Below are positions 8,047 through 63,513 of a stretch of 64,000 nucleotides of DNA, in pieces. Both the position numbers and the translations under genes were made by a program. Origin of the DNA: Bacteroidetes bacterium 2013_40CM_41_45. GTDB taxonomy: Bacteria > Bacteroidota > Bacteroidia > AKYH767-A > 2013-40CM-41-45. A model generated the notes under the pieces. The model was given only the letters and a program-made list of their open reading frames with translations. It was not told the origin of the DNA and did not search any database. Numbering within the stretch: position 1 is the stretch's first letter; every line of letters starts with the position of its first letter. The stretch is taken from NCBI GenBank assembly GCA_002215675.1, contig NGFH01000002.1, positions 221,887-285,886 of the forward strand. The letters are read 5' to 3'.

Positions 8047-8095
8047 GGTATTCGTTATTCGTTATGTTACTAAAAGCCAATAGCCAATAGCTACT

Positions 8096-9235: not shown

Positions 9236-9268
9236 TTTTCTTTTTTCGTTATGTGGTTTTTCAAATAA

Positions 9269-10600: not shown

Positions 10601-10605
10601 AAAAT

Positions 10606-33400: not shown

Positions 33401-34647
33401 TTTTACCCGGATTTAAACCCGAACCCGAATACCTGGGACAGAACTGGGGAAATCCCAATGCACCCGGAACAGGTTTTATTTTCGGAAGCCAGGCGGATAT
33501 TCGTCCCCGAGCTATTGCAAATAACTGGATAACTACCGATACCACGCTCAACAACGCTTATGTTACCACGCAACTTAAAAATCTCTCGGGCCGGATGACC
33601 GTGGAGCCGTTCAGGAATTTTAAAATCGAGCTGAATGCTACAAGAAATTATTCGCTCAATCATCAGGAATATTTCCGCTCCGATGGGGCAGGAGGGTTCC
33701 ATTCATTCAGTCCGACTGAAAGCGGCAACTATACGGTCTCGTGGCTCAGCTACAGAACATCTTTTGTAAAAGATGCAACTGATTATTCCAATGCAACCTT
33801 TACCCAGTTCGACCGCAACCGTACCGTTTTTTCACAGCGTCTTGGCGGCGGCGGCAACGGTTATGGCTTGACTCAACAGGATGTACTGACCTATTCGTTC
33901 CTTGCTGCATATACCGGTAGCGATGCGTCAACATTTAAGATGGACCAGTTTCCGAAAATCCCTAAACCCAACTGGAGAATAACCTATGACGGGCTGGGCA
34001 AATTAAAATGGGCGCAGCAATATGTAACGCAGGTTAACCTGAATCATTCTTACAAATCCACCTACAGTGTAAACTCATTTATTCAGAACCTTCCCTGGGT
34101 AGATTCTGAAGGGCAGGCAACCGATGTAAACGGAAACCTGATTCCGCGGTATGACATACAACAGCTTACCATTACCGAACAATGGGGGCCGCTGATTGGT
34201 ATTGACATAACATGGAAAAACAGTTTGCAAACTCGTGCGGAGGTAAAACGCGACCGCACCGTTTCGTTAAGCTATTCCAACATACAGGTAACGGAAGTGC
34301 GCGGCAACGAATATGTAATCGGGGCAGGATACAGGATTAAAAACTTTAAACTGCCGTTCGGGCTGGGGGCAAAAAATAAATCGAAGAAAAACGACCTGAA
34401 CCTGAAAGCCGATTTCAGCTACAGAAATAATTACACCATTATCCGCCAGTTGATTCAGCATATTAACCAGCCATCACAGGGCAACAAAACACTGTCTATT
34501 AAAACATCGGCAGACTATGTGCTGAATGAACGGCTGAATGTTCGGCTGTTCTACGACCAAACCATTAACCAGCCGTTTGTATCATCTTCTTTCCCCACAT
34601 CAAATACAAATATTGGTTTAAGTTTGCGCTTTACAATAGCACAATAA
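27496..34647 (+). CDS. sprA: T9SS translocon / gliding motility protein SprA
   Basis: 2383 aa giant beta-barrel protein; conserved position between ruvA and gcvH. Confidence 0.9.
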   Translation: MLRTAVKYFTIISLVLFLLNWGWAAVNKGITSASKYKEIFGHNFSVRLDSDTTSLPYPFTDRYGDKYGPTQTQRDLFLHDPSNVKETIEYDPKEGVYNIEERMGNLFYRNPSYLTFDEFVENEFRSSTKKYWRNRSEEGGTANKKGLIPKIFVKSQVFDRIFGGNTIDIRPQGSAELTFGVNISRNDNPALPEKQRKITTFDFKEKIQMNVIGNIGDKMKLQTNYNTEATFDFENKMKLEYTGYEDEIIKKIEAGNVSLPLRGTLITGSQSLFGLKTELQFGRMTVTSIFSQQKGKTQSVDVQGGAQTSFFEIKGDQYEANRHYFLAQYFRNLYDHALSNLPIVQSGINITRIEVWVTNRTSVVENTRDIVAFMDLGESNFDTSAQLITSSIPNSPPFDSSNSLYTNIANNISGGLSALRNLNQSPALTGLNHLSNTFNFTDPKNVVTVNFARKLNPNEFTLNSRLGYISLNQALNADEVLAVAFEYTLNGHTYHVGDFSTGGINAPQALFVKMLKSTNVSTNLFTWDLMMKNIYSLGTYNLSNQDFRLDVLFLDDNIGSYINYIPEGCASAKGVPLLTLFNMDRLNSNNDQQPDGVFDFVDGVTVNRANGRIIFPVLEPFGDYLKGKFCNDTILASRYCYFALYDSTKSKAQQQPEKNKFLLKGSYQGSSGSEIPLNAVNIPEGSVKVTAGGVPLTENVDYTVDYTLGRVKIINAGLLSSNAPIHVSLESNALFSIQTKTLLGSRFDYTFNKDFAVGGTIMRLSERPLTNKITIGDEPIANTIWGVDGTYRTSSRLLTKLVDRIPFINTKEESNITFNGEFADLIPGHSKAVGSTGTSYIDDFEGSKTPIDIKSPSSWILSSTPQGQFPEADYIDSLPYGFNRAKLAWYYIDPLFQKRINGVTPDAQYLTDDDMRNHFVREIPEQEIFPNKAVRNNQPTTLTCLNLAFYPKERGPYNYDMSSTSINPDGTLKNPDKRWGGIMRKIEPTDFEASNIEFIEFWLMDPFNSDYGPGTNTPGGDLYFNLGNISEDILKDGRKSFENGLPAVTNNNTTDSTVWGVVPVIQSIVQAFDNSEAARKQQDVGLDGLSDANEQSYFGPVVNAAQGVLNASAYDAYRADPSSDDYNYFRSTAYDQAKLKPLERYKRYNGMEGNSPTPQDYPDGYPTVATNIPDAEDINRDNTLSKEENYYQYKIEIKPGSMVVGQNFITDMIETPVSNKTAIKWYHFKVPLKSPESTFGNIEDFKSIRFARMYLRDFSDSILLRFARLDLVRSEWRKYENSLLAPGESVNPNTGTMFDVSTVNIEENGQRSPVNYVLPPGIARETDISTTNLAQLNEQSLSLKVCDLEDGDARATYKTTQFDVRTYKRIKMYIHAESLIGSVPLQDGELSAFIRLGSDFTGNFYEYEVPLYVTAPGATSPDAIWPSGNLIDLETSKLINAKLQRNSISWSRTAPFILSDGRNKITVMGNPNLSGIRVIMIGVRNIKDGGLSKCGEVWVDELRVTDFDESGGWAANMRINAQLADFGTVAVVGNRSTIGWGSIEQKVGERKKEDNISYDISTSLELGKFFPEKIGLKIPMYFGYAESFTNPQYNPLDPDVLFNNALDAAPNPEYRDSIKRAVQDYTQRKSVNFTNVRKIKGAGKSASRVYDIENFNFTYSYNEIYNRNITTQYKTAKTYRGAVGYNFSTKVSSFSPFGKMAGKSPYLKLIKDFNINYVPLTNFSFRTDVDRAYAETQLRNNNVGLVYTQPPTFDKSFTMNRLYDVKLDLTRSIKIDFSATANARIDEPPGKIDDTEIRPGFTKRDSVRQNFWNLGRLTQYRHSASADYTVPFSKFPLTDWVTLPLKYTADYNWTSAPLQYDSTTTGYKPNSLANTISNSQTIQVSPNVNFVTLYNKVPFLKKVNQPSAPPIKQPKPAVPKNPNDTTKAKIPAPKVPKPKTISPVVKGFFRTLMSIRTASVTYSETNGTLLPGFKPEPEYLGQNWGNPNAPGTGFIFGSQADIRPRAIANNWITTDTTLNNAYVTTQLKNLSGRMTVEPFRNFKIELNATRNYSLNHQEYFRSDGAGGFHSFSPTESGNYTVSWLSYRTSFVKDATDYSNATFTQFDRNRTVFSQRLGGGGNGYGLTQQDVLTYSFLAAYTGSDASTFKMDQFPKIPKPNWRITYDGLGKLKWAQQYVTQVNLNHSYKSTYSVNSFIQNLPWVDSEGQATDVNGNLIPRYDIQQLTITEQWGPLIGIDITWKNSLQTRAEVKRDRTVSLSYSNIQVTEVRGNEYVIGAGYRIKNFKLPFGLGAKNKSKKNDLNLKADFSYRNNYTIIRQLIQHINQPSQGNKTLSIKTSADYVLNERLNVRLFYDQTINQPFVSSSFPTSNTNIGLSLRFTIAQ

Positions 34648-40348: not shown

Positions 40349-43300
40349 ATGAAATCAATCAACCTTACGGCTTTTTTGCCGTTTGCTGCTGTTATATTTT
40401 TCTGTGCATCAACTGTGCAGGGCCAGGGCGTTAAATCGCAGGCAATGGCGCAGGTGCAGGCGCAAAAAAATATCCGTTGGCTTTCTCCCGGAACCGAATA
40501 CTATGAAGAAAATCATTTTTTCTCGTACCTGCGGTTTGAAGGAGCGGTGTTTGACAAATCGTATACTCCACGTTACAGAGAAAAAATACCTGTACGTTCT
40601 TCCACTCAAAAAGTAACTGCGCAAATAAAAGATGCAGTCTTTTCTCCTGTTGAAGAAATTTCACTGGTCGAAAAATTCAAAGACAAAATTACCAGTTCAA
40701 TTGATGCTCAGGCAGAGGTAGCTTATGAACAGCGTCAGTCGTATGCCATCGTTACTTTTCTTCCGTTCCGAAAAAATCCTTCTACGGGTATCTATGAAAA
40801 AGTAGTTTCGTTTAACATAGCGCTTAGTGAAACTGCCGGAACAGGCAGGCCAAAATCTATCACTTCATCGTTTACGTCTTCTTCAGTTCTTGCTTCGGGA
40901 AACTGGTTTAAGATTGCCGTTGCGCGGGATGGAGTTTATAAGATGGATTTTAATTTTCTTAAGAAACTTGGCATAGATGTTTCACAAATTAATCCGACAT
41001 ACATAAGAGTATACGGCAACGGTGGCGGCTTGCTTCCGTTCGCAAACAGCGCTCCGCGCATAGATGACCTGGCCGAAAATGCAATCTACGTTTCGGGAGA
41101 AAGTGACGGGCAGTTTAACACGGATGATTATGTGCTCTTTTATGGACAAGGTCAGTTGCGCTGGGTATATGATTCAACGAACAGTTTGTTTCACCACCAG
41201 GACAATTATTATTCGGATTCAACTTATTATTTCGTTAACACCGATATGGGGCCCGGCAAAAGAATCATGAGCCAATCGTCTTCCGCTTTGCCCGCCACAC
41301 ATTTTGCAACTACTTTTAATGATTATGCGCTTCATGAGGTTGATATAACAAACTGTGTGAAGTCAGGAAAAGAATGGTACGGTGAAGCATTCGACCCCGT
41401 AAATACTTCGAAAGAATTTACTTTTTCATTTCCGAATATTTCCATGTCAAACCAGGTGTGCATCCGCTCCGATGTTGTTGCTCATGCGGTGAGTCCGCCC
41501 TATCCACCGTCGGGATTTAATGTGTATGCCAACGGGCAGCCCCTCATGACGCAAACGGTTCCCACAGTCGGCAATTTTTATTTTGCGCCTTGCGACAACG
41601 AAGTTTATAACGATAATTGTTTTAGTGTTACTTCTTCAGATATCAACGTAGACCTGGTTTTTAACCCGAGCTATACCGATGCGACAGGGCAGCTCAATTA
41701 TTTAGAGCTTAATGCCATACGTAGCCTTTCCATGTGGGGTAGCCAGATGACATTCCGGAACGCCGGCAATACCGCAGCCGGAAATGTGAAGGAGTATACG
41801 CTTACAGGCGCGCTGCCCTCTACAAAAATATGGGAGGTAACCGACCCCGGTAATGTACGCGAACAACAGGTAACTGTAAGCGGCAATAATTTTATTTTTC
41901 GTTTACCGGCCGATTCTCTTCGTGAGTTTATAGCTTTTACCGGCAACAGCTTTTTTACTCCGAGTGCAATCGGGAAAATTGAAAACCAGAATTTGCACGG
42001 CATCATGTCTGCACAGATGGTTATTGTGACTCACCCGTTATTTATGGCCCAGGCAGAGCGCCTTGCCGAGCATCACCGCAATGTCGATTCGCTCACCGTT
42101 TCTGTTGTTACCACATTCCAGATATATAATGAATTCTCTTCCGGTGCGCAGGATGTTTCTGCCATCCGTGATTTTATGAGGATGCTTTATGAAAGAAATT
42201 TTGCATCCGGCGTTCTTCCCAAATACCTGCTCTTATTTGGCGATGGTTCTTACGATAATAAATACCGCCTTGTAGGTAATACGGATTTTATTGTAACCTA
42301 CCAGTCCGACAATTCGCTCGACCCTACCAGCACCTATATCTCCGATGATTATTTCGGGTTCCTCGACCCAAATGAAGGGTTCTGGCCCGAGAATTCCACA
42401 GCATTGCTCGATATAGGAATAGGACGTTTTCCGGTAAAGACAATTGCAGAAGCGGAGGCAGTGGTAAAGAAAACCATCAATTACGCCATGAACGGAACCA
42501 ACGGAAATTTGTCCAACTGCGATGCGGGCAACAGCGGCTTCGGTGAGTGGAGAAATATTGTAACGTTTGTTGCCGATGACGAGGATAGTAATACGCATTT
42601 TACCCAGGCGCAGCAGCTTGCCACAAAAGTGGATACCACCTACCGCGATTACAACATCGAAAAGATTTACCTCGATGCTTATGTGCAGACATCCACAGTT
42701 GGAGGTGAGCGGTATATAGGAGCAGAAGACGCATTAAGGAACCGTGTGCAGCGTGGCACCTTGCTGCTCTCCTATATCGGGCACGGAGGAGAGGTTGGCC
42801 TTGCGCACGAGCGGGTTTTATCTATAGAAACAATTAACGGTTGGTCCAATTATAACCGCCTTGCCGCTTTTCTTACTGCAACGTGCGAGTTTGCCCGCGT
42901 TGATGACCCTGCCCGCAACTCTGCCGGAGAATTGGTTCTTCTTAACCCCAACGGAGGAGGTGTAGTATTGTTTACCACAACGCGCCTTGCTTTTTCGGGA
43001 AGCAATTTTCAATTAAGCAGGAAATTTTTCGACTGTGTTTTTGAACCGATTAATGGCTCCATGCCTGCCATTGGTGATATTAACCGGATTACAAAAAACG
43101 GTTACCTCGATAGTAATGTCCGGAACTTTATTATGCTCGGCGACCCTGCCATAAAACTTGCTTATCCCAGGTGGAATGTGGTAACTACTTCCATCAACAA
43201 CCACCCGGCAAATCTCCCTGCTGATACTGTACAAGGTTTGAATAGGGTGAGCATAAGCGGAGAAATTCATAACGATAACGGCCAGCTCATGACCAACTTT

Positions 43301-44251
43301 AACGGAACCCTGATTACATCGGCTTACGATAAATACGCTACCATTTATACATTGGCTAATGACCCAAGCAGCCTGGTTGCACCATTTAAAGTAAGAAAGA
43401 ATGTTTTGTTCAAAGGCAAAGCCACCATACAGAACGGAAAATTCAATTACACTTTTGTCCTTCCCAAAGATATTGCCCCGCTGTATGACAATGGTAAAAT
43501 AAGCTATTATGCATACAATGGATTAACAGATGCCAACGGCTATTATGATAATATTATTATCGGCGGTGGGTATGATACATCAGCCGCTAACGACCATAAG
43601 GGGCCTGAAATAAAGCTTTATATGAACGATGAGAAATTTGTAAGTGGTGGAGTCACTAGTGCAAACCCGGTAGTGTATGCAGTTGTTTCCGATACCAGCG
43701 GTATCAATACTTCCGGGAACGGAATAGGACACGATATTACTGTTGTGCTTGATAATAACCCTGACAAACTTTTCATTGCTAACGATTATTTTGAATGCGA
43801 CCTTAACAGCTATCAGAAAGGCAAAGTGCTATTTCCCCTTAGCGGGTTGGAGGACGGAAAGCATTCTGCCGAACTTAAAGTGTGGGATGCATTCAACAAC
43901 TCTTCAAAATCATCCGTTGATTTTTATGTGAACAGTTCAAAGGAAATTACGCTGCAGCATGTTTACAATTACCCTAACCCGTTTACAACCAAGACATCCT
44001 TTATGTTTGAGCATAACCGCGCCTGCGTTCCTATGAGTGTGCAGGTTCAGATTCTCACCGTTAGCGGTAAGCTGGTAAAAACCATAAGCCAGAATATTAC
44101 CTGCGACGGTTTCCGGTATGATAAAATAGAATGGGACGGAAGAGACGATTACGGTGATAAAATCGGGCGAGGCGTTTACATTTACCGCCTTAGAGTAAAA
44201 ACCGAAGACGGGTATACCGCCGACAAAATGGAAAAACTCGTTAAGCTCTGA
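40349..44251 (+). CDS. porU: T9SS C-terminal signal peptidase PorU (C25 gingipain-family peptidase)
   Basis: 1300 aa, signal peptide, peptidase C25 region, adjacent to porV. Confidence 0.8.
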   Translation: MKSINLTAFLPFAAVIFFCASTVQGQGVKSQAMAQVQAQKNIRWLSPGTEYYEENHFFSYLRFEGAVFDKSYTPRYREKIPVRSSTQKVTAQIKDAVFSPVEEISLVEKFKDKITSSIDAQAEVAYEQRQSYAIVTFLPFRKNPSTGIYEKVVSFNIALSETAGTGRPKSITSSFTSSSVLASGNWFKIAVARDGVYKMDFNFLKKLGIDVSQINPTYIRVYGNGGGLLPFANSAPRIDDLAENAIYVSGESDGQFNTDDYVLFYGQGQLRWVYDSTNSLFHHQDNYYSDSTYYFVNTDMGPGKRIMSQSSSALPATHFATTFNDYALHEVDITNCVKSGKEWYGEAFDPVNTSKEFTFSFPNISMSNQVCIRSDVVAHAVSPPYPPSGFNVYANGQPLMTQTVPTVGNFYFAPCDNEVYNDNCFSVTSSDINVDLVFNPSYTDATGQLNYLELNAIRSLSMWGSQMTFRNAGNTAAGNVKEYTLTGALPSTKIWEVTDPGNVREQQVTVSGNNFIFRLPADSLREFIAFTGNSFFTPSAIGKIENQNLHGIMSAQMVIVTHPLFMAQAERLAEHHRNVDSLTVSVVTTFQIYNEFSSGAQDVSAIRDFMRMLYERNFASGVLPKYLLLFGDGSYDNKYRLVGNTDFIVTYQSDNSLDPTSTYISDDYFGFLDPNEGFWPENSTALLDIGIGRFPVKTIAEAEAVVKKTINYAMNGTNGNLSNCDAGNSGFGEWRNIVTFVADDEDSNTHFTQAQQLATKVDTTYRDYNIEKIYLDAYVQTSTVGGERYIGAEDALRNRVQRGTLLLSYIGHGGEVGLAHERVLSIETINGWSNYNRLAAFLTATCEFARVDDPARNSAGELVLLNPNGGGVVLFTTTRLAFSGSNFQLSRKFFDCVFEPINGSMPAIGDINRITKNGYLDSNVRNFIMLGDPAIKLAYPRWNVVTTSINNHPANLPADTVQGLNRVSISGEIHNDNGQLMTNFNGTLITSAYDKYATIYTLANDPSSLVAPFKVRKNVLFKGKATIQNGKFNYTFVLPKDIAPLYDNGKISYYAYNGLTDANGYYDNIIIGGGYDTSAANDHKGPEIKLYMNDEKFVSGGVTSANPVVYAVVSDTSGINTSGNGIGHDITVVLDNNPDKLFIANDYFECDLNSYQKGKVLFPLSGLEDGKHSAELKVWDAFNNSSKSSVDFYVNSSKEITLQHVYNYPNPFTTKTSFMFEHNRACVPMSVQVQILTVSGKLVKTISQNITCDGFRYDKIEWDGRDDYGDKIGRGVYIYRLRVKTEDGYTADKMEKLVKL

Positions 44252-51765: not shown

Positions 51766-51907
51766 ACTTATCATAGAGAGATTCACCCAGCATTTCAACG
51801 CACTGGTAAGGTCAAATAGACTGTTAATAAATATCAACTTGTTATCTTTTAACCTTTAAATTAAATTACCCTTCAAAATGACTCTGAAATTCAAAATTAC
51901 AAAGGCA

Positions 51908-54586
51908 ATGAAAAAAATATTTAGCCGAAACGCGGCACTTATAATGGGTTTACTGTTTTCCTGTGCATCCATTACCCAGGCGCAAAATAATAATGTTTAT
52001 GCATGGCCTGATACTGCCATTTGCCAGGGAGCATCCGTAACATTGAACGTGAGTGCGGTGCCTGCTATTGTGCCTAATTCTACCGTAATGATTACCCCCA
52101 TTGGTGATGACCAATGGAGTCCTATCGTTAGCCTTCCGTTTCCGTTTACTTTTTATGGAAACATTTACAATCAATGCATCATAGGTTCAAATGGCGAAGT
52201 CGGGTTTAACACTGTAAGTGCCGGTGGATATAATACCTGGCCCATTAATGTGACCATGCCGTCGCCAACTCCTGTGGACCTTCGCAACACCATCATGGGA
52301 CCCTGGCAGGATAATTATCCGCCATTGAGTGGTTCAATACGTGTAGGAACATTCGGAACTGCACCTAACCGGATTTTTGTTGCCGAGTGGGACGATATTC
52401 CTATGTATGCTTGTAATCAAACGTGTATAGGCAACCAGATTCAGTTGTATGAAACATCTAATATTATTGAAATACATATCGCTGCCAAAAATTTGTGCGC
52501 TACCTGGAACCAGGGACGCGCCATTGAAGGACTTAATAATGCAACAGGAACCATAGCGCACATTGTGCCGGGCAGAAATTGCTGTACCCAATGGACGGCA
52601 TTCCAGGATGCTTACAGGTTCACGCCTTCACCGGGTCCTACCTGGTATACAGTTGCACCGACTACCTTTTTACCTAGAATATTTGTTGCTTCAACCAATA
52701 TAAATATAACATGGCTTCTTAATGGTAACCCGGTTGGAAACGGCCCCACTCTGAATGTTTCTCCGGTAACTACTTCAAATTATATTGCTCAGGTATCGTA
52801 TACAAGCTGCGGTAATTATTCTTTCAGTGATACGGTAACCGTTACGGTTAGCCCTCCGTTCACGCTTAACTTCAACCCAATCGTAAATGTATTATGCTTT
52901 GGAGGCAGCACCGGCTCGGCTACTATTAATGCATCAGCCAATGCGGCGCTTCCCCTAGCATACTTGTGGAGCACTACGCCCCCGGAGACTACCGCGACAG
53001 GGAATAGTCTCAATGCTAACACTTATACGGTTACTGTTACCGATAACGGAGGGTGTATTGTAAGCGCCTCCGTAACCATAACGGAGCCGCCCGACCTTAT
53101 TGTTACACCCGACCCTCCTACAAATGTTCAGTGTTTTGGGCAGGGTAATGGAGTAGCTTCTGTTACTGTAAATGGCGGGGTCGCACCATACGCATATTTA
53201 TGGTCGAATGGAGCTAACAGTAATCCCAATACAAGTCTTGGTGGCAATACATATACCGTAACCGTTACCGATGCCAATGGATGTACAAAAACAGCGTCAG
53301 TGACTGTTACTGAACCTACACAATTGGTTATTAATCCTACCACTTCACAAACTATTTGTATCGGCACCTCATTAAATCTTTGCCCTAATGAATCGGGAGG
53401 TACCCCTGGCTATACGTATCTATGGTCTGACGGCTCTATGACGCAATGCATTAATGTGAGCCCAGCTATATCTACAATTTATACGGTAACCGTTACCGAT
53501 GCTAATAACTGCATAATTACTTCCTCTCCAATTTTCATTACGGTTAATCCTCCTCTCACTGTTACTGCGGTAGTAAATGACCCTGACATTTGTGTTGGCA
53601 CGCAGGTATTTCTAAGCGCTGTTGGCGTTAGCGGTGGCGATGGAAATTATTCTTACAACTGGATTCCCGGAATAGGCAGTACTGCAGGACCTCTTGGACA
53701 CTCTCCTGTTGTTACAACCAATTACACTGTTATAGTAACGGACGGATGCGGTACTCCTGCTGCAACCGACACGGTTACAGTTGTCGTAAACCCCTTACCG
53801 TTAGCACTGTTTAGCGGAACAAACCTTAGCGGTTGTGTTCCGTTTGATGCCTGCTTCCAGGATTTGTCAAACGTAAGCACGGGCAGCATTACACAATGGC
53901 TGTGGGATTTCGGAGATGGTTCTTCGGGTGCGGCAACTCAAAATCCGTGTCATACCTATACTTCTCCTTCATCGCCTAACCTGTATAATGTTACGCTCTC
54001 CGTTACATCCAATGCCGGATGCTCTCAATCATTCACCATCAATAATTATGTAGACGCACACCCGGTTACCACAGCATATTTCACAATGTATCCCAAGTTT
54101 ACTACCCTGGCAGAGCCCAATATTAATTTTGATGCGAGTGGAGACCCTCTGTGGATATATCACTGGTCATTCGGAGACGGATATTCTGACACCTCACAGA
54201 GTGTTACACACCCTTACACCGCTGTAGGCAAGTACCAGGTTTGTCTCTACACAACGAATACATATAACTGCGCCGATACGCTTTGCGATTCGGTTGATGT
54301 CCGCGCAGATTTCTCATTCTATGTTCCCAATGCATTTACACCCAACCACGATTTGGTTAACGAAGTATTTACTCCTATGGGCCGTAGCTTCCAGGAGTAT
54401 GACCTTACCATATACGACCGCTGGGGAACTATTATTTTCCGTTCAAAAGACATAAGATTTTCCTGGGATGGTAAACTAAGCAATGGCGATGATGCCCCGA
54501 CAGGTATTTATATTTACAATATCGATTTGCGAGACCTCGATGGCGTAAAGCATAATTTTATCGGCAACGTGGCGTTGATTCGTTAG
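51908..54586 (+). CDS. SprB-repeat/PKD cell-surface protein with T9SS type-B C-terminal domain
   Basis: Signal peptide; repeated C.G...G.A...........YLWSNG......LG.NTYTVTVTD.NGC modules; C-term FYVPNAFTPNHD...IYIYNIDL..GNVALIR. Confidence 0.7.
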   Translation: MKKIFSRNAALIMGLLFSCASITQAQNNNVYAWPDTAICQGASVTLNVSAVPAIVPNSTVMITPIGDDQWSPIVSLPFPFTFYGNIYNQCIIGSNGEVGFNTVSAGGYNTWPINVTMPSPTPVDLRNTIMGPWQDNYPPLSGSIRVGTFGTAPNRIFVAEWDDIPMYACNQTCIGNQIQLYETSNIIEIHIAAKNLCATWNQGRAIEGLNNATGTIAHIVPGRNCCTQWTAFQDAYRFTPSPGPTWYTVAPTTFLPRIFVASTNINITWLLNGNPVGNGPTLNVSPVTTSNYIAQVSYTSCGNYSFSDTVTVTVSPPFTLNFNPIVNVLCFGGSTGSATINASANAALPLAYLWSTTPPETTATGNSLNANTYTVTVTDNGGCIVSASVTITEPPDLIVTPDPPTNVQCFGQGNGVASVTVNGGVAPYAYLWSNGANSNPNTSLGGNTYTVTVTDANGCTKTASVTVTEPTQLVINPTTSQTICIGTSLNLCPNESGGTPGYTYLWSDGSMTQCINVSPAISTIYTVTVTDANNCIITSSPIFITVNPPLTVTAVVNDPDICVGTQVFLSAVGVSGGDGNYSYNWIPGIGSTAGPLGHSPVVTTNYTVIVTDGCGTPAATDTVTVVVNPLPLALFSGTNLSGCVPFDACFQDLSNVSTGSITQWLWDFGDGSSGAATQNPCHTYTSPSSPNLYNVTLSVTSNAGCSQSFTINNYVDAHPVTTAYFTMYPKFTTLAEPNINFDASGDPLWIYHWSFGDGYSDTSQSVTHPYTAVGKYQVCLYTTNTYNCADTLCDSVDVRADFSFYVPNAFTPNHDLVNEVFTPMGRSFQEYDLTIYDRWGTIIFRSKDIRFSWDGKLSNGDDAPTGIYIYNIDLRDLDGVKHNFIGNVALIR

Positions 54587-56093: not shown

Positions 56094-57179
56094 CTACGTA
56101 AACTTTTCGCCCTTCTTTACTTTCACATCGCTTACAAGCTGGCGGATTTCCTGCTCTTGTGATTTGGGGCAGATGAGCAGAATATTTTCTGCTTCCACCA
56201 CAATAAAATCTTCAAGCCCTTTAATTACGGCAAGCTTGTCTTTAGGAATATTGATGATGCAATTTTTAGTGTCATCCAACATTGCATGGTTCCCGGTTAC
56301 AGCGTTTCCATTGGCATCGTGCGGCAGGTGCTCATACAGCGAGGTCCATGTTCCCAAATCGCTCCAACCGAAATCAGAAGCAAGCACGTAAACATTCTTT
56401 GCTTTTTCCATGATACCATAATCAATGGAAATATTTTTGCACTGTGAGTATGCTTTCCTTATGAACTCTGCCTCTTCTGGAGTGTTATAAATATTTGCAC
56501 CGTCTTTAAAAAGAGTAGCTACTTCGGGCAGATATTCTTCAAATGCCCTGAGAATGGCTTTGGCATTCCAGATGAAAATTCCGGAGTTCCATAAAAAGTC
56601 ACCACTGCGTATAAAAAACTTCGCCATCTCCTCGTTGGGCTTTTCGGTAAAAGTTTTTACAGGGCGTATGTGCAACATTTCTGTGGAGCCATCTTCCCTG
56701 AACTGGATATATCCATAACCCGTGTCGGGCCGGTCGGGCCTGATGCCCAGGGTAACAAGCGCATTTTTCTTCTTGGTAAACTCCAGCGCAGAACCGATGG
56801 ATTTAATGAATGACGGCTCATCTTTAATCAGGTGGTCACTGGGAGTTACTACAATGTTAGCCTCACGGTCAAGCGCATAGATTTTATTACAAGCATAGGC
56901 AACGCAGGGAGCTGTATTTCTGCGCTGCGGTTCGGCAATAATCTGCCGGGGTTTTATACCCGGTATTTGCTCCTGCACCAGGTCGGTATAGGATTCGCTG
57001 GTAACAATAATTATGTTTTCTTCAGGACAAATAATCTTAAACCTGTCATACGTTTGGCGGAGCAGCGATTTGCCGGTGCCCAGGATATCGAGAAACTGCT
57101 TAGGGTGCCCGGTGCGGCTTAAAGGCCAGAATCGGCTGCCGATACCACCCGCCATTATCACACAATACCGGTCTTGCAT
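56094..57179 (-). CDS. mannose-1-phosphate guanylyltransferase
   Basis: 361 aa; IMAGGIGSRFWPLS nucleotidyltransferase motif, no PMI domain. Confidence 0.85.
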   Translation of the reverse strand: MQDRYCVIMAGGIGSRFWPLSRTGHPKQFLDILGTGKSLLRQTYDRFKIICPEENIIIVTSESYTDLVQEQIPGIKPRQIIAEPQRRNTAPCVAYACNKIYALDREANIVVTPSDHLIKDEPSFIKSIGSALEFTKKKNALVTLGIRPDRPDTGYGYIQFREDGSTEMLHIRPVKTFTEKPNEEMAKFFIRSGDFLWNSGIFIWNAKAILRAFEEYLPEVATLFKDGANIYNTPEEAEFIRKAYSQCKNISIDYGIMEKAKNVYVLASDFGWSDLGTWTSLYEHLPHDANGNAVTGNHAMLDDTKNCIINIPKDKLAVIKGLEDFIVVEAENILLICPKSQEQEIRQLVSDVKVKKGEKFT

Positions 57180-57349
57180 GAGCGCAAAGTAAAGAAAAAT
57201 GCAGGAGTGATTTTAAATAACCTAAATACCTCAGGTCAATATTTTTCTCCCATTTGAGCGGCTCAAAGAAGAAAAAGTATTTTTGAGAACGAAAAATTAC
57301 ACAAATCCTGAATTTTAATGGCACGGAAATTTAATTCTATTTTTGCAAG

Positions 57350-58789
57350 ATGAAAATTACTCGTTTTGTCCTTTCTGATTACCATCAGTTTAGGTATCTC
57401 AATATTAATTTGACTTATCCAAAAGAGCATGTAAAAGCAGGGCAACCTTTAGATAAAGTTTGCTTCATTGGAAAAAATGGAACGGGAAAAACTACAATTC
57501 TTAAAACAATAAAACAGTTCCTGCTCATTTTTGAGTTAAATGCACTTCATCAAGGGCTTCTTGAAGATAGTCACGAGCCTACCCAATTTTGCTTTGAGGT
57601 TGAATATAAAAATAAAAAATTTTTATTTGGGAAATTCATTCTTTTTTTACCTAATGCAGAAACTAGAATAAGGGCTAATGTGCAAGTATTAGAGAGAAGT
57701 TTTTACGAACAAATACCTGACTTCTTTGAGAATGTTTTTGTAAAAAAAGATTCTAATCTTATTCAAAAAATATTTGAGGAAAGCAGAAAGCCAGATCATG
57801 TTGCATCAGATGCCATTATAAGAAACGAAATAAAAGCCAAACTATCTAGAGAGAGTTTGTTAGTTTATGCACCAACAGAATATAATATTAATAAATCAGG
57901 TTCAGAAATTTATTCTTTAACTGATTTGAATGAAGGGTTGAAATTTGGAAATGCGTTGCCTTATTACCACGAAATCTCTTTTGATTACTTGAAAAACTTT
58001 TGGTCTTTACTGATTTATCAAGTACAACTTAGAGAAAGGGAAAGAAATGAATTTGAAAATACAAAAGATAATCGTAAAAGAACAAAGGAAGAATTAATAG
58101 AAATTTTTGAAAAAGAACATCCGGAAATTTTAAAAATAATTGCAAAAAAATGGGATATTATTTTAGGCCAGGTCGGACTTTATTTAGATGCTGAAAATGC
58201 AAAGAAACCTATTGTCTTAACCGATCAATTAATTGCTTACATAAAAGATAAAAAAAATCATAAAAATATTCCCTTTGGAGCTTTAAGTTCAGGAATCAAA
58301 AATTTGATTTATAGTCTTGGTTACTTGACTTCTCTCTATTTTAATCGCTCAATTAAATCATCAACAGTAATATTTGATGAACCAGAATTTAGTTTGTTTC
58401 CTGATATATTGTTAAAATTAATTGACTTTTATACAAATCCAAAAGATTTTCCTAACACACAATTTTTCTTTGCAACTCATAGTCCACTTATTGCCTCACA
58501 ATTTGAACCTGAAGAACGAGTTTGTTTACATTTTGACGATGAGAGAAAAGTTTATTCTACGACGGGTATCGCTCCGCTTGGAGATGATTCATCGGATTTA
58601 TTGCTGAAAGATTTTGGACTAGAGGAGGTTATGCCTGCTTATGGAGTATCAATGTGGAAAAAGTATCTTGAGCTAAAACGAAAAATTGATAAAGAACCTA
58701 ATCCAGATAAAATTAAAAATATCCTGAAAGAATTTGCTGATTTAAGACAAGATTACAATTTCCCAGATCTTTATGAACCGAATAAGTAA
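57350..58789 (+). CDS. ABC-like/SMC-like ATPase (AAA_15/AAA_21-type), PtuA-like candidate defence ATPase
   Basis: Walker A GKNGTGKTT (res 42-50), signature LSSGIKN, Walker B VIFDEPE, H-loop FATHSPL; AT-rich; TAnnTTTG box 57338-57345 4 nt before ATG. Confidence 0.75.
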   Translation: MKITRFVLSDYHQFRYLNINLTYPKEHVKAGQPLDKVCFIGKNGTGKTTILKTIKQFLLIFELNALHQGLLEDSHEPTQFCFEVEYKNKKFLFGKFILFLPNAETRIRANVQVLERSFYEQIPDFFENVFVKKDSNLIQKIFEESRKPDHVASDAIIRNEIKAKLSRESLLVYAPTEYNINKSGSEIYSLTDLNEGLKFGNALPYYHEISFDYLKNFWSLLIYQVQLRERERNEFENTKDNRKRTKEELIEIFEKEHPEILKIIAKKWDIILGQVGLYLDAENAKKPIVLTDQLIAYIKDKKNHKNIPFGALSSGIKNLIYSLGYLTSLYFNRSIKSSTVIFDEPEFSLFPDILLKLIDFYTNPKDFPNTQFFFATHSPLIASQFEPEERVCLHFDDERKVYSTTGIAPLGDDSSDLLLKDFGLEEVMPAYGVSMWKKYLELKRKIDKEPNPDKIKNILKEFADLRQDYNFPDLYEPNK

Positions 58790-59342
58790 GCCAGCGAATT
58801 CAGAAATAATCACACGTGGCATTGTTTATAAAGAGGGTGGTGATAACTCAGGACTTAGAGAGATTTTAATTAGGGAGCAAAAAAATGTCTGTGCTTATAC
58901 TCAAGCGAGGGTCACAGAAGCTTTTTCTGTTGACACAGAACATTTTAATCCTACTCTAAAGAATACTGATGATGATAATTATAACAATTGGTTTGCGGTT
59001 AGTACAAAATGGAACCGTCAAAAAAGGAGTGTAGAAAAGTGGAATGAATACCAAGAAATCTTACATCCAACAGACGAAGAATTTGAAAAAAGAATAATCT
59101 ATAAAAACGGTGTGTATGAATGGAACGAAGGGGATGATGAAGCAAGACATCTTATAGAGTACTTAAACTTAAATCAAGAAAATCTTGTTAGGGATAGGAA
59201 AAGTCATTTAAAAACTTTGCAATTACTCCTTGAAAAATTTGGTAATGATACAGAACAGTTGAGAAATTATCTAGAAACTGAAGATCCTAATCAAATCCAA
59301 TATATCCGTGCTATACAAGAGGAGTTAGGAATTACTTTTTAA
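58773..59342 (+). CDS. HNH-like small protein (PtuB-like), partner of upstream ATPase
   Basis: 17-nt overlap with ATPase gene; ..VCAYTQARVTEAFSVDTEHFNP..N..W.. resembles degenerate HNH (CxxC...D/EH..P...N) core. Confidence 0.5.
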   Translation: MNRISKPANSEIITRGIVYKEGGDNSGLREILIREQKNVCAYTQARVTEAFSVDTEHFNPTLKNTDDDNYNNWFAVSTKWNRQKRSVEKWNEYQEILHPTDEEFEKRIIYKNGVYEWNEGDDEARHLIEYLNLNQENLVRDRKSHLKTLQLLLEKFGNDTEQLRNYLETEDPNQIQYIRAIQEELGITF

Positions 59343-59466
59343 AAAACATCACAAGAATTCTCTCCCCCGCCAAATTAAGCCCGATGGAGCGACCTTTTCG
59401 GGAGCGAGAGCGGGACGGGAGGTTGTGAGGGCTACAAAAGGGTGCTTCATGATCTTTTTTCTTCAG

Positions 59467-59517
59467 TTATTCTATTCCTAACAGCTTCAGATAGGCAGGG
59501 TCAACTTTGAATTTCAC
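59467..59517 (-). pseudogene. 3'-terminal remnant of a TPR-membrane-protein paralog
   Basis: Minus-strand reading VKFKVDPAYLKLLGIE* closely parallels C-terminus RKIDPAYLKLLGVQ* of the gene at 60872-62794; ~38/45 nt identity. Confidence 0.4.
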
Positions 59518-59522
59518 GCTTT

Positions 59523-60212
59523 TCATTGTTCATTATTTTCATCAACCGGCGGGGCAGGTGTATTTTTATCCGCACCAAACATATATTGTAAAATAAAATG
59601 CCATACAAGATTATTTCCGTTATTAAAGGTTGAAGTAAAATAGAAAGGCGGAGGGGAGTTGCGTTTAAAAACAGGTATCAGAGAATTGCTGTAGCGAAAA
59701 GAGAAATTAAAATGCTGAGAAAAATTATACCCTATTCCAGCAAGCAAACTCACATCCGTTTTGTTGAGATAGCTATCGTTACCATATGAATAAAAATTAT
59801 CACCGTCTGCCTTGTGACTGATTAATTTTCCCAGTGAAATTCCTGTGTGAAAATCAAATCTGTTTATAGGTTTTTTACCAATGTTGAAATTGAGACGCCA
59901 TTTAATAATAAGCGGAAATTCAAGATAGTTAAAAGAAATTTTATAGTAGCCGTTGCCGTTGGAGTCAGCGGGCTGCTGAGTTCCTTTTTGAATGTAATTA
60001 AGCTCTAACCTTAGGGTCGCTTTTTGACTTAAAACAGTGCTTACCGTGCCTCCAAAAGTAAAACCGGCTTTATGAAAATCGGTGTCATAATCATACAGGT
60101 CAGAGGCGTACACATCGGTAGCAACAAGTCCGCCGGAAATGCCTGCGTTGAAGCGTTGGGCATTCGCATGAATTGCAACCGGCAATAAGAGCACACAGAG
60201 AATTTTTTTCAT
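59523..60212 (-). CDS. outer membrane beta-barrel protein (porin-like, OMP_b-brl family)
   Basis: 229 aa, signal peptide, alternating beta strands, AT-rich. Confidence 0.55.
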   Translation of the reverse strand: MKKILCVLLLPVAIHANAQRFNAGISGGLVATDVYASDLYDYDTDFHKAGFTFGGTVSTVLSQKATLRLELNYIQKGTQQPADSNGNGYYKISFNYLEFPLIIKWRLNFNIGKKPINRFDFHTGISLGKLISHKADGDNFYSYGNDSYLNKTDVSLLAGIGYNFSQHFNFSFRYSNSLIPVFKRNSPPPFYFTSTFNNGNNLVWHFILQYMFGADKNTPAPPVDENNEQ

Positions 60213-60233
60213 TTGTCATTCCATCAATTGCGT

Positions 60234-60650
60234 TCATCCATATTTGGTCATTAATTCATCAACTTCTTCTGCCAATGTTTTCTTTGCATGATGCTCTTCC
60301 TGATTTTTAATATAACTGATTAGCGATTGAACTTGTGATTCGCTGACAGATACTGCAAAGTAATCATCTTGCCAGAAAAACTTTTCTTTAGTCAGTTTAT
60401 TTTTATTTATCCAATAAGAAGATTCGCCTTTTATTAATTGAGATACTTTTGAAATGGATAGGTCTTTTCCTAATGAAATCAAGCAATGCATATGTTCGGT
60501 ATGTCCGTTGATGGCTTGAAGAAATATTTATTTTTCCTTACAGTTGCTGATGACGTGTTTTTGAACATCAATTTTGACTTCTTTGGTGAGCCAAGGCATT
60601 CTGTTCTTAGTTGAGAATACTAAATGAACCCAGATTTTAACGTAAGACAT
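60234..60650 (-). pseudogene. tnpA: IS200/IS605-family (Y1 HuH) transposase tnpA with a single in-frame TAA at codon 41
   Basis: MSYVKIWVHLVFSTKNR...KEK*IFLQAINGHTEHMHCLISL...ISYIKNQEEHH: HuH motif and catalytic Tyr region present, one nonsense codon (tta at 60528-60530). Confidence 0.7.
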
Positions 60651-60811
60651 GATATTTGATTTTAATATTTTTTATTCGGCTAAAGCCAATTTTTCTTTTA
60701 ACACATTCACAGTTGGCTGAAGCCAACTGCAATGAATCAATAGGATTTATCCATTGCCGTCAGCTTTAGCTGACGGATAAAATAGAATATAATTAATTGG
60801 CTTTAGCCAAA
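60234..60811 (-). mobile_element. IS200/IS605-like (or RAYT/REP-like) element: tnpA plus upstream hairpin block
   Basis: Hairpins agttggctgaagccaact (60711-60728), ccgtcagctttagctgacgg (60757-60776) and inverted pair cggctaaagccaat (60677-60690)/attggctttagccaa (60796-60810); no room for a right-end hairpin. Confidence 0.5.
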
Positions 60812-60871
60812 TCCATTAGTTTTTTAATTAATTTTCTTAATCAATTTTTCCATCAAAAATCTATGTTTCCA

Positions 60872-62794
60872 TTATTGCACTCCTAATAGCTTAAGATAGG
60901 CAGGGTCTATCTTTCGGCCCAGCTGCCGGGCTTTAAGCACATCGGCCCTTGCCGCCTCTATTTGTCCCAATTGGTTGTAGGAATAAGAGCGGTTTTGCCA
61001 GTAGACAGGTTCTGAAGGCATCAACTCAATGGCTTTTGAAAAGTCCGCAAGCGATTCTTTATGCTTGCCCATTTTCTGAAGCGCCACACCCCGTGAATTA
61101 TAAATGCCATCATCGGTCGGAACAAGTTTTAGATACTTTGTAAAGTCATCTACCGCTTTTTGGTATTGACCTACCTGGTCATAATATATTCCTCTGTTAA
61201 AGTATGTTTTGGCAAAAGTTGAGTCAATCACTTCGGCTTTCGCAAAATCATCTTCCGCTTTGGCATATTCATTTTTGCGGATGTAGATTAATGCGCGGTT
61301 GGCATACGTGGTAACTTTTTTTGCATCCAACGCAATGGCCTGGTTGTAATCAGACAGCGCAAGGTCATCCTGCCCGCGCTCGAAATAAATATTGCCCCGG
61401 TTGTTATAGGTTAATGCATATTTAGGATTGATGGATAATACCTTATTATAGTTCTCCAACGCCTTATCGTTTTGCTTTAAGCTGCGGTAATAAACTCCGA
61501 GATTATCATATCCCACATCAGAGCCGGGATATTTTGCAACGTTATCTCTCCACAATGTCCCGCTGTTTTTCCATACCAGGCAGCGCTGGTAACTCATCAC
61601 CGCAAAGACAACGGCATAAATCACAAAAATGCTTTTTACAAGAAATGAAATGTTCGCCTTTCGTTCCGTTAAATTCTGTAAAGAAGTCGCAGCAATAAAA
61701 AATAATCCGAAGTAAGAAACATAGGTAAAACGTTCTGCCATAAATGCTTTGCCCGCGCCAACCACCTGCAGCACAAACATTACATTGACTAAAAAGAACA
61801 GAAGCCCGAAGACTACATTTCTATCCGTGCGGAATTTTTTAATAACCCAAACAACACCGGCAATAAGAAGCAACGGTGTTATGTAATACAGCGTAGGAAG
61901 CACTCCCTCCGTCTTTTGCGGATAGGGATAATAGGCAGACAAGTTTACAGGGGCGAAGAATCGCACCAGGTAACTTGTAAGCGCATAACATGCATACAAG
62001 ATGCGCTCATACAAGGGATACGTTTCATTCATAATAAGCGAATCACCTGTCTTAAGGAAATATATTCCGGCTATTCCCGTTGCAGCCGACAAAATAAAAA
62101 ATGGAATTTTTTCCATGATGAGAGAAAACTTTAACGGGCGTTTTTCCAGATAATCAATAAGAAGCATGGAAAGCGGAAGTGATACCGCCTGTATTTTTGA
62201 AAGCATTGAAAGAACGGCAAGCACAAGCATCAGCAAGTAAAGAAGAACTTGTGCACCGGGCTTTCGTACCCATTTTATGTACGCAATAAGGGCTCCGAAA
62301 TAAAACGAAGCAAACATTACATCTTTTAATTCTGTAATCCATGCTACCGATTCCACACGCATGGGATGAATGGCAAAAAGCAATGTGATGGCACCGACAA
62401 CAAAAGATTTTTTGGTGAGAAGCCGTGCCGTCCAAAAGACAAGCGCAGTACAAACCAGGTGCAATAAAATATTAACCAGGTGATACAGGTATGGTTCTAA
62501 CCCCACCTGTGAACGTATCAAAGCAAAGACAAGGATGGGAAGCGGGTTGTAGTTATTGCCAACAGACTGCGTAAATATTGCTTTTACATTTTGAGAATTA
62601 AGGTTTACGGTCAGGTGGTTATCGGTAATGTTAAGCCCGTCATCCCAGGTGTAAATGAGGTCGTTTTTCAGGGCGGGATAAAAGACTATGAATGTAACCG
62701 CCAGGATGGCAGGAAGCAGCCATACAGGGAATTTTTTTAGCTGAATTGTAGCCGTTTTAGCGGGTTGATGAATTTTCTTTTTATCTTTTTTCAC
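60872..62794 (-). CDS. membrane-anchored TPR-repeat protein (multi-TM N-terminal domain + C-terminal TPR array)
   Basis: 640 aa; ~10 TM helices then repeated TPR motifs (..YNNRGNIYFERGQDDLALSDYNQAIALD..). Confidence 0.7.
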   Translation of the reverse strand: MKKDKKKIHQPAKTATIQLKKFPVWLLPAILAVTFIVFYPALKNDLIYTWDDGLNITDNHLTVNLNSQNVKAIFTQSVGNNYNPLPILVFALIRSQVGLEPYLYHLVNILLHLVCTALVFWTARLLTKKSFVVGAITLLFAIHPMRVESVAWITELKDVMFASFYFGALIAYIKWVRKPGAQVLLYLLMLVLAVLSMLSKIQAVSLPLSMLLIDYLEKRPLKFSLIMEKIPFFILSAATGIAGIYFLKTGDSLIMNETYPLYERILYACYALTSYLVRFFAPVNLSAYYPYPQKTEGVLPTLYYITPLLLIAGVVWVIKKFRTDRNVVFGLLFFLVNVMFVLQVVGAGKAFMAERFTYVSYFGLFFIAATSLQNLTERKANISFLVKSIFVIYAVVFAVMSYQRCLVWKNSGTLWRDNVAKYPGSDVGYDNLGVYYRSLKQNDKALENYNKVLSINPKYALTYNNRGNIYFERGQDDLALSDYNQAIALDAKKVTTYANRALIYIRKNEYAKAEDDFAKAEVIDSTFAKTYFNRGIYYDQVGQYQKAVDDFTKYLKLVPTDDGIYNSRGVALQKMGKHKESLADFSKAIELMPSEPVYWQNRSYSYNQLGQIEAARADVLKARQLGRKIDPAYLKLLGVQ

Positions 62795-62853: not shown

Positions 62854-63513
62854 ATGGCGCATCAAAAGTATTTATACATTTTCCTGTTTACCATTCTTTC
62901 GGTAAAATGTTTTTCTCAGACGGACGGTTTGCCCGTTGACGATTCCCCATCAAAGAAAGTATTTTTTTCAATGGATTATCGCAATGGCTTTATCAGGTCA
63001 ACGGAAGCTCATGTAGTTGGTTTTCGCGCGGGGGTGGAAGTAGGGCAAAAATATCGTTTGGGAGTGGGGTATCATTATCTTTCTTCAGAAATTATCCGCG
63101 GCATACCTGTGATGCAGGAAGGTGCAACCATAAACACCAATGCGCGCGTTCATCTCAGGTATGGAAGCGTTTCTGCCGAATATATTTTGTTCACCAGCGA
63201 GCTTTGGCAGGTATCAGCACCGCTTATTCTTGGCATTGGCTCTTCGTATTATGAGCCGCCTTCCAACAAATATCCTGAAACCAACAGGCAATTTACACTT
63301 GTCATCGAGCCCGCTGTAACGGTGCAGTATAATATCATTCCTTTCATCGGAATCGGCACCGGCATAGGGTACCGCTTTATGCCCGCAGGCGATGGCAATT
63401 TACGTTCGGTATTTGCAACTCCTGTCTATGACTTGCGGCTTAAGCTGCTCATGAACGAAGTGGCTGAAGCGCTCTTCCCTAACGGCTTGTGGAAAAAGAA
63501 AAGGCAGGAATAA
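62854..63513 (+). CDS. hypothetical exported beta-rich protein
   Basis: 219 aa with signal peptide, no recognisable motif. Confidence 0.4.
   Translation: MAHQKYLYIFLFTILSVKCFSQTDGLPVDDSPSKKVFFSMDYRNGFIRSTEAHVVGFRAGVEVGQKYRLGVGYHYLSSEIIRGIPVMQEGATINTNARVHLRYGSVSAEYILFTSELWQVSAPLILGIGSSYYEPPSNKYPETNRQFTLVIEPAVTVQYNIIPFIGIGTGIGYRFMPAGDGNLRSVFATPVYDLRLKLLMNEVAEALFPNGLWKKKRQE

Follow-up and report, generated by a model that had tools for sequence, protein, structure and literature searches.

The stretch analysed here, 64,000 nucleotides (nt) of Bacteroidetes bacterium 2013_40CM_41_45 (contig NGFH01000002.1, positions 221,887 to 285,886; hereafter the window), carries near its end two overlapping genes, ptuA and ptuB, which are related to the ATPase and nuclease genes of the Septu anti-phage systems. 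The pair is laid out as follows.

57350..58789, forward strand: ptuA, 479 amino acids (aa), ABC/SMC-type ATPase
58773..59342, forward strand: ptuB, 189 aa, HNH (H-N-N) nuclease
58773..58789, forward strand: overlap of 17 nt in which ptuA ends and ptuB begins

An initial annotation had proposed these genes as a Septu-like PtuA/PtuB pair, and the coordinates and lengths of both open reading frames (ORFs) were reproduced along with the overlap, which suggests, on the face of the sequence, that the two are translationally coupled. The AT-richness claimed for them is real: GC content is 0.300 in ptuA, 0.332 in ptuB and 0.309 in the cassette as a whole against 0.434 in the rest of the window, and windowed values run at 0.27-0.31 over ptuA and 0.33-0.37 over ptuB with 0.41-0.48 on both sides. 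Pfam, PADLOC, fold and linkage evidence all agree with the Septu-like reading and, judged by sequence and predicted structure, the pair conforms to Septu type I in every respect examined. It is likely that the locus is a stand-alone Septu type I anti-phage cassette of ~2.3 kb, ptuA then ptuB, that was acquired horizontally.

All of the ATPase motifs first described for the 479-aa protein were found. The Walker A motif GKNGTGKT occupies residues 41-48 (nt 57470-57493), the signature LSSG residues 312-315 (nt 58283-58294) and the Walker B motif with its catalytic glutamate, VIFDEPE, residues 340-346 (nt 58367-58387), while the H-loop ATHSP begins at residue 375 and contains H377 (nt 58478-58480). 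Among 36 PtuA relatives of 29-56% identity, G41, G46, K47, S313, G315, D343, E344, T376 and H377 are invariant. The AAA_15/AAA_21 architecture that had been read from these motifs is in agreement with Pfam, in which both families match above threshold (AAA_15 at 73 bits, E 4.8e-20, cut-off 32.1; AAA_21 at 55.6 bits, E 1.2e-14, cut-off 27). The PADLOC PtuA model PDLC00274 matches residues 1-471 with an E value of 1.3e-85 and covers the whole profile (438/438); M1 aligns with the start of the family and the ORF is full length for it. When the AlphaFold model (predicted local distance difference test, pLDDT, 86.4) was compared with the PDB by Foldseek, the top 50 matches were all PtuA chains, the best being that of the E. 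coli Septu system (8eea_D, 1.9e-15). The protein ends in a three-helix extension at residues 414-469 (nt 58589-58756), with helices predicted at 414-422, 430-448 and 452-469.

It is very improbable that the pair belongs instead to another defence family with an AAA_15/AAA_21 ATPase, such as PARIS (AriA/AriB), Gabija (GajA/GajB), AbiL or an OLD-family nuclease. The 479-aa protein does have secondary PADLOC matches to AriA (7.8e-19), AbiLi (1.5e-14) and GajA (9.3e-11), and a profile built from the 36 relatives matches AriA structures (7e-16) as well as solved retron PtuA and the stand-alone Septu PtuA 8ee4 (3e-13). These matches to other families are, however, tens of orders of magnitude weaker than that to the PtuA model and reflect the common ABC head. 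Furthermore, the partner is an HNH nuclease that draws 24 PtuB-type matches in PADLOC, as opposed to a Toprim/DUF4435 AriB, a UvrD-like GajB or an AbiLii; Pfam and PADLOC showed neither a Toprim domain, fused to PtuA or otherwise, nor a helicase domain in either protein, and the 50 best fold matches include only PtuA chains.

The 189-aa protein matches the PADLOC PtuB model PDLC00347 (E 9.4e-57, residues 1-188, profile 187/195), and the PADLOC comparison proposed for the Septu reading therefore gave full-length matches to dedicated models for both proteins. A single-sequence search of the PDB with PtuB gave only a marginal match to a Cas9 HNH domain (E 0.38), and family profiles and a fold search were needed for its homology to solved chains. 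The profile of the PtuB family (36 relatives) places the Septu PtuB 8ee7 first (1.9e-4), followed by Cas9 HNH domains and then by retron PtuBs. Foldseek comparison of the AlphaFold model (pLDDT 95.7) with the PDB returned PtuB chains in all of the top 8 places, 8eea_G among them, and Cas9 HNH domains thereafter. By this comparison the protein has the HNH (beta-beta-alpha-Me) fold; the lack of any nuclease fold, which had been named as the finding that would speak against the annotation, was not seen. The core lies at residues 53-84 (nt 58929-59024) and contains E56-H57 (nt 58938-58943), N72 (nt 58986-58988) and N81 (nt 59013-59015). In the model H57 ends a strand predicted at 53-57, N72 begins the strand predicted at 73-77 and N81 falls within a predicted helix at 78-84, an arrangement that corresponds to beta-beta-alpha-Me. 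A three-helix C-terminal domain follows at residues 136-185 (nt 59178-59327), its helices being predicted at 136-155, 160-169 and 178-185. M1 of PtuB also aligns with the family start and the ORF is full length for the family.

The small protein had been described at first as a partly degenerate HNH nuclease with incomplete zinc ligands, and this description holds in one part only. The zinc ligands are indeed absent, C40 being the single cysteine of the protein, but the catalytic core is intact. H57, F58, N59, P60, N72, W73, N81 and K84 are invariant, and E56 nearly so, among the 36 PtuB relatives (36-57% identity). In a wider set of 125 full-length PtuB sequences, drawn from a search of 1.84 billion cluster representatives, every sequence (125/125) has H57 and N72, and N81 occurs in 122/125, the other three having histidine. 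The nuclease core is thus not degenerate. In the PtuB of Retron-Eco7 a Cys4 zinc finger (C43/C46/C78/C90) is required for defence, whereas the PtuB of stand-alone E. coli Septu and the SpCas9 HNH domain are without such a zinc finger (PMC12673091). Alignment sets the motif C-A-Y-C...IEHFRP of retron-type PtuB against C40-A-Y-T43...EHFNP in the family of the window protein, and the position equivalent to C46 of Eco7 is threonine or serine in 118/125 sequences, with a CxxC anywhere in only 5/124. Because of this distribution the zinc-less state can be taken as a stable trait, and PtuB belongs to a stable zinc-less lineage rather than being a decaying gene. The E56-H57 dyad is shared, with the same numbering, with the PtuB of Ec78, in which both E56A and H57A abolish DNA cleavage (PMC13376987). 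A whole lineage with the catalytic triad intact would dispense with the Cys4 zinc finger that retron-type PtuB requires, and this makes the lineage useful for comparing Septu structures.

The same observations bear on whether the locus might be what is left of a Septu system, inactive and in decay. A split IS200-like transposase gene adjoins the pair (see below), the Pfam HNH match is sub-threshold and the zinc ligands are missing, all of which could be expected of a decaying locus. Both ORFs are nevertheless full length with every catalytic and structural invariant residue in place, and long open frames at 30% GC are unlikely without selection. In addition, three independently assembled contigs carry an identical PtuB, and the stretches of PtuA recovered from them are 99-100% identical. 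We regard decay as very unlikely.

A further question is whether the pair is the effector half of a type I-A retron (Septu type II) whose reverse transcriptase (RT) and non-coding RNA (ncRNA) have been lost or lie elsewhere. This would be in agreement with the weak NCBIfam matches, which point to the PtuA and PtuB of retron Ec78, with the PtuB motif C-A-Y-x...EHF-x-P, which resembles that of retron-type TIGR02646 proteins, and with the best single-sequence PDB matches of PtuA, which are retron PtuA chains. The composition of the locus argues otherwise. The genes in the 10 kb to each side of ptuAB include no RT, no Rfam family reached its gathering threshold in the 64-kb window, and the inserted segment described below carries ptuA and ptuB only. 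The genes within 10 kb encode an E2 acyltransferase, an extracytoplasmic function (ECF) sigma factor, CHU_C/SprB adhesins, the products of fumC and manC, an outer membrane protein (OMP) beta-barrel, a tetratricopeptide repeat (TPR) protein, RuvB, a substrate of the type IX secretion system (T9SS), EamA, YicC and Gmk. It has been shown that an N-terminal extension of retron PtuA binds the RT and the ncRNA (PMC12819146). The window PtuA is without this extension, its Walker A motif lying at residue 41 as opposed to ~90 in retron PtuA, and position 1 of the PtuA family profile corresponds to residue 1 of the Septu protein 8ee4 while position 38 falls at residue 90 in the chains of retron PtuA. 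PtuB for its part lacks the Cys4 zinc finger, and the 80 related loci discussed below adjoin housekeeping genes with no RT among their common neighbour families. Assignment as a type I-A retron effector was rejected on four defining features, namely RT/ncRNA, the N-terminal extension, the Cys4 zinc finger and the NCBIfam scores, and we consider it extremely unlikely. The pair is placed with the stand-alone type because Walker A lies at residue 41, Rfam gives no match and there is no RT within 10 kb.

The origin of the stand-alone Septu cassette was examined by comparison with a metagenome contig of 3410 nt (Ga0209488_10040577, here L084) that retains the site in its empty state. The features concerned are given below.

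57197..59461, no strand: inserted AT-rich segment with the cassette, ~2.27 kb, bounds good to a few tens of bases
59462..59502, reverse strand: relic of the 3' end of the ancestral TPR gene, encoding DPAYLKLLGIE* and forming copy 1 of a 41-nt direct repeat
60867-60907: copy 2 of the 41-nt direct repeat, the present TPR terminus, encoding DPAYLKLLGVQ*; the copies are 83% identical
59523-60212, reverse strand: OMP beta-barrel gene, within the block 59503-60866
60234..60491, reverse strand: part of an IS200-like tnpA, 85 aa, Y1_Tnp profile positions 54-121, E 1.1e-13
60528..60647, reverse strand: part of an IS200-like tnpA, 39 aa, Y1_Tnp profile positions 3-38, E 2.5e-4

The genes of L084 run fumC-manC-TPR, the last two separated by a short spacer only, with the TPR stop ~70 nt from the manC start. 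Its amino acid identity to the window is 94% for fumC, 89% for manC and 70% for the TPR protein, and manC and fumC are 84% identical at the nucleotide level. Positions 57171-57196 of the window match the first 26 nt of the L084 manC-TPR spacer, and 59466-59503 match the 3' end of the L084 TPR gene, which ends ...DPAYLKQLGIE* and so shares the terminal GIE* of repeat copy 1. The empty manC-TPR site of a close relative shows the cassette to be an insertion, the ptuAB segment (~57197-59461) having entered the manC-TPR spacer. The contig provides an unusually clean before-and-after picture of a 2.3-kb defence cassette gained between housekeeping genes.

The block of ~1.36 kb at 59503-60866, which contains the OMP gene and the split tnpA, is a second insertion, independent of ptuAB, into the final 12 codons of the TPR gene. 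The initial annotation had placed the pair in an island carrying an IS200-type tnpA remnant. The remnant is real, two Y1_Tnp matches marking a split transposase gene, and there is foreign DNA between housekeeping genes; this is not one island, however, but two separate insertions, and the 10 kb on each side contain no further defence gene. Neither inverted nor direct repeats of a convincing kind were found flanking ptuAB, the sole strong repeat (41 nt) bracketing the OMP/IS200 block. The insertion sequence (IS) remnant lies beside the cassette but is not evidently what carried it in.

When one genome per species was scanned, 80 loci encoding a relative of PtuB were obtained, all of them by their titles from Bacteroidota with the exception of one metagenome-assembled genome (MAG) labelled Limnohabitans. 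A PtuA homologue lies directly 5' of PtuB and ends within a few bases of its start in 79/80 loci, and the remaining one (L045, Runella) has a longer, divergent PtuA-type ATPase upstream; ptuA-then-ptuB order is thus kept in 80/80. The junctions between the two genes fall between -44 and +8 nt in all loci but one. It had been asked at the outset whether the ATPase keeps unrelated company outside defence islands, for example as a transporter component. Taken literally this is so in one respect, as the gene does not lie in a defence island, but the nuclease pairing holds in all 80 loci and the ATPase is never part of a transporter. As to the longer ATPases, those encoded 5' of ptuB in L045 (8328-10001), L033 (4573-6288) and L069 (8298-9986), from Runella and Arcicella, measure ~560-570 aa. 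In that of L045 the N-terminus of the window PtuA aligns from about residue 196, corresponding to ~190 extra N-terminal residues, and identity to the window PtuA across the C-terminal half is only ~28%.

The surroundings of the window cassette recur hardly at all in these relatives: its fumC, OMP, tnpA and TPR neighbours occur in none of the 80 loci, and a manC homologue is nearby in L073 only. Two other settings predominate. In 35 loci, mainly from Flavobacteriaceae (for example L011 at 7501-11083, L016, L017, L020, L036 and L053), purK lies 5' and purE 3' of the cassette, which is on the same strand with median gaps of 75 nt and 24 nt. In ~17 loci, mainly from Spirosomataceae (Spirosoma, Fibrella, Fibrisoma, Rudanella and Arsenicibacter), a GH3-family gene lies 5' and dxr 3'. 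The stop codon of ptuB overlaps the start of dxr (ATGA) in 11/11 loci checked (L005, L008, L009, L010, L012, L022, L025, L030, L034, L038 and L052), at about locus position 10585-10600 in those with full flanks. The dxr start is taken as genuine because Dxr begins MT..RHIAILGSTGSIG, and an essential gene of the methylerythritol phosphate (MEP) pathway would accordingly be translationally coupled to a Septu-type nuclease gene. The position inside a purine-biosynthesis operon is curious given the reported inhibition of the Septu nuclease by ATP, and the purK/purE site may simply be an integration hotspot.

The low GC of the cassette is not peculiar to the window. Of 70 loci (among L004-L083), 89% have a cassette whose GC is lower than that of its flanks by 3 points or more, the median difference being -7.2 points, and this is the case whatever the GC of the host (flanks 0.29-0.58). 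Low GC is therefore a trait of the family and not the sign of one recent transfer. The cassette also diverges further than its flanks, with median identities of 0.56 and 0.80 respectively at the purK/purE site and 0.54 and 0.85 at the GH3/dxr site, and the divergence of the two is weakly correlated (Mantel r 0.31 and 0.25 respectively). Simple vertical descent with purK/purE was considered and is unsupported, the Mantel r being only 0.31. The pattern fits a fast-evolving or often exchanged accessory cassette that would have lodged in conserved sites. Some individual loci call for comment. The Limnohabitans-labelled MAG (L061, JASGCW010000005.1) has the order purK-ptuAB-purE of Flavobacterium, with 73-80% identity between its purK and purE and the Flavobacteriaceae reference, and its contig is probably mis-binned rather than representing a real transfer to Betaproteobacteria. 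In L029, L051, L054, L071, L081 and L082 no intact ptuB ORF lies over the tblastn match, which in L081 and L082 spans residues 23-187 only; these six may be disrupted copies or artefacts of ORF picking.

Residence within housekeeping operons (purK-ptuAB-purE in 35 loci, GH3-ptuAB-dxr in ~17), together with the overlap of the ptuB stop with the start of the essential dxr, raises the possibility that the pair is not anti-phage at all. It might be a selfish or entrenched toxin-like module, or have been co-opted for housekeeping, persisting because its loss is costly or because it serves the nucleic-acid metabolism of the host. PtuAB derived from retrons is toxic once freed (PMC12819146, PMC13376987), and no defence genes adjoin the window locus within 10 kb on each side. 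Against this, the cassette is missing from the same site in the close relative L084, is AT-richer than its flanks, changes or is exchanged much faster than they are and occurs in only scattered species; moreover, protection against phages is seen with the stand-alone Septu systems that have been characterised (PMC13096335). Because of the empty site, the low GC, the fast divergence and the scattered distribution, accessory defence DNA fits better than a housekeeping function, and we consider a toxin-like or housekeeping role unlikely. It is similarly doubtful, though worth stating, that the pair and its relatives form a distinct Bacteroidota Septu clade with a zinc-less, TIGR02646-like PtuB that is wired elsewhere into core metabolic operons (purK/purE, dxr). 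Were such wiring functional, an ATP-gated nuclease would be linked through its expression or activation to the metabolism of purines or isoprenoids; the cassette could alternatively have become entrenched, an essential gene depending on it for translation. Such a clade might have a substrate or a trigger unlike that of E. coli Septu.

With the stand-alone Septu reading preferred, a working mechanism can be proposed by analogy with the E. coli homologues, from which its oligomeric state, ATP control, trigger, substrate and anti-phage outcome are all borrowed. PtuA, as an ABC/SMC-type ATPase, would oligomerise, and its three-helix C-terminal extension would clamp the three-helix C-terminal domain of PtuB so that the HNH nuclease is restrained while ATP is bound. 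In published accounts an assembly of PtuA6:PtuB2 with an ATP-inhibited nuclease is described (PMC12640716, PMC12819146), ATP binding being given there as what inhibits the Septu nuclease (PMC12640716, citing Li et al. 2024). PtuB's C-terminal domain has been seen to lie between two PtuA extensions as a nine-helix bundle (PMC12819146), and the three helices predicted at the C-terminus of PtuA and the three in PtuB fit such a bundle. On infection by a phage, the assembly might then be loosened by a phage protein and/or a fall in ATP, upon which PtuB, with E56/H57, N72, N81 and a divalent metal, would cut nucleic acid either by nicking DNA or by cleaving host tRNA. Phage replication would stop, at the cost of host growth. 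In E. coli Septu, which acts like an abortive-infection system, mutants in K43 or D316 of PtuA and in H75 or N91 of PtuB lose immunity (PMC13096335). Every motif required by the activities of the homologues is present and conserved in the window pair. Clear targets for mutation are K47 and E344 of PtuA and H57 and N72 of PtuB.

Several observations weigh against an anti-phage Septu cassette and are gathered here. There is no defence island within 10 kb on each side of the window locus or around most relatives, and no relative was found on viral contigs (IMG/VR). Identity to solved PtuA and PtuB is only 15-20%. The Pfam HNH_4 match of PtuB is below gathering (15.3 vs 22 bits), and the NCBIfam models for retron Ec78 score 41.2 bits vs a cut-off of 500 for PtuA and 36.8 vs 150 for PtuB; TIGR02646 likewise scores 25 bits vs 52 on PtuB. 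The Cys4 zinc finger essential in Retron-Eco7 PtuB is absent. A sigma-70-type promoter scan gave matches at chance level only, and a scan for intrinsic terminators gave zero terminator-like hairpins. Reported substrates differ among homologues (plasmid nicking, single-stranded DNA, tRNA-Tyr; PMC12640716), and this conflict is why the presumed substrate is left wide here. The Bacteroidota subfamily is of modest size, with 116 clusters (50% identity) at E values up to 1e-30 and 1,505 at up to 1e-3.

For annotation, the two genes can be settled as a complete stand-alone Septu system. Since genomes of Flavobacterium routinely receive a 'Septu type I' call from PADLOC v2 (PMC12781566), such a finding in Bacteroidota has precedent. 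The cassette is a divergent representative of a system that PADLOC models already cover and in that sense fairly ordinary; what is more unusual is found outside the window, in the purK/purE embedding and the ATGA overlap with dxr in other genera.

The consensus TTTG-N21-TATTTTTG is characteristic of promoters of Bacteroides and Flavobacterium. One site of this type precedes the cassette.

57253..57285, forward strand: promoter-like site of Bacteroidota type, TTTG-N21-TATTTTTG, 65 nt 5' of the ptuA ATG and within the inserted DNA

There are 3 matches to this pattern in the window where 1.8 are expected by chance, a count that is not above chance, and all 3 lie 34-65 nt 5' of a start codon on the same strand. 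The motif at 57253-57285 is put forward as a candidate ptuA promoter by way of suggestion only. Folding of the region 3' of ptuB (59340-59470) was no better than that of shuffled sequence (z 0.18), and so gave no sign of a structured RNA. The window as a whole contains no tRNA genes. Its remainder resembles the chromosome of a gliding, T9SS-bearing member of the Bacteroidota, with SprA (2383 aa; 27496-34647), a Peptidase_C25 protein (1300 aa; 40349-44251), a Por_Secre_tail protein (21546-23249), a SprB/PKD/CHU_C adhesin (51878-54586) and a gene resembling cyanophycin synthetase (883 aa; 13933-16584). An ORF of 219 aa at 62854-63513 (forward strand) has no Pfam family, and weak homologues of it (31% identity) adjoin manC in two metagenome loci, for example L095.

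Among known systems the closest is E. coli Septu (8EE4/8EE7/8EEA/8SUX, Septu Ec-B88). Both have an ATPase gene followed by an HNH gene and no RT, a PtuA without an N-terminal extension and a PtuB without a zinc finger (PMC12673091). The best fold match of PtuA (8eea_D) and the best profile match of PtuB (8ee7) are to this system, and the catalytic positions that its immunity needs, Walker A/B in PtuA and H...N in PtuB (PMC13096335), are held in common. The two differ in that sequence identity is only ~15-17%, the window PtuB is shorter (189 aa vs 243 aa), its core motif reads C-A-Y-T...EHFNP rather than C-C-Y-S...EHVEN, and the host here belongs to the Bacteroidota.

The PtuAB pairs of Retron-Eco7/Ec78 and Retron-Eco4/Ec83 have homologous ATPase and HNH folds (template modelling score, TM, 0.5-0.65). 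The E56-H57 dyad of the type I-A retrons has the same numbering (PMC13376987), and the predicted layout, in which PtuB's C-terminal domain would be held by C-terminal extensions of PtuA, is also alike (PMC12819146). In contrast to these retrons the window locus has no RT, ncRNA or multicopy single-stranded DNA (msDNA), nor does its PtuA have an N-terminal extension; C40 stands alone in its PtuB where Eco7 has C43/C46/C78/C90, and both proteins score far under the NCBIfam equivalog cut-offs.

The HNH domain of Cas9 (Pfam HNH_4), which is the next-best match after PtuB chains in both sequence and fold, is likewise a zinc-less beta-beta-alpha-Me nuclease with an H...N...N triad. This likeness is at the level of the domain only, as the window pair has neither a RuvC domain nor a guide RNA and its nuclease would be regulated by an ABC ATPase partner. 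The ATPases of PARIS (AriA), Gabija (GajA) and the OLD family, finally, share with PtuA the AAA_15/AAA_21 ABC-type head with an inserted helical domain, but they give much weaker matches and work with a Toprim nuclease, either fused or on a partner, in place of the HNH partner that accompanies PtuA in the window.

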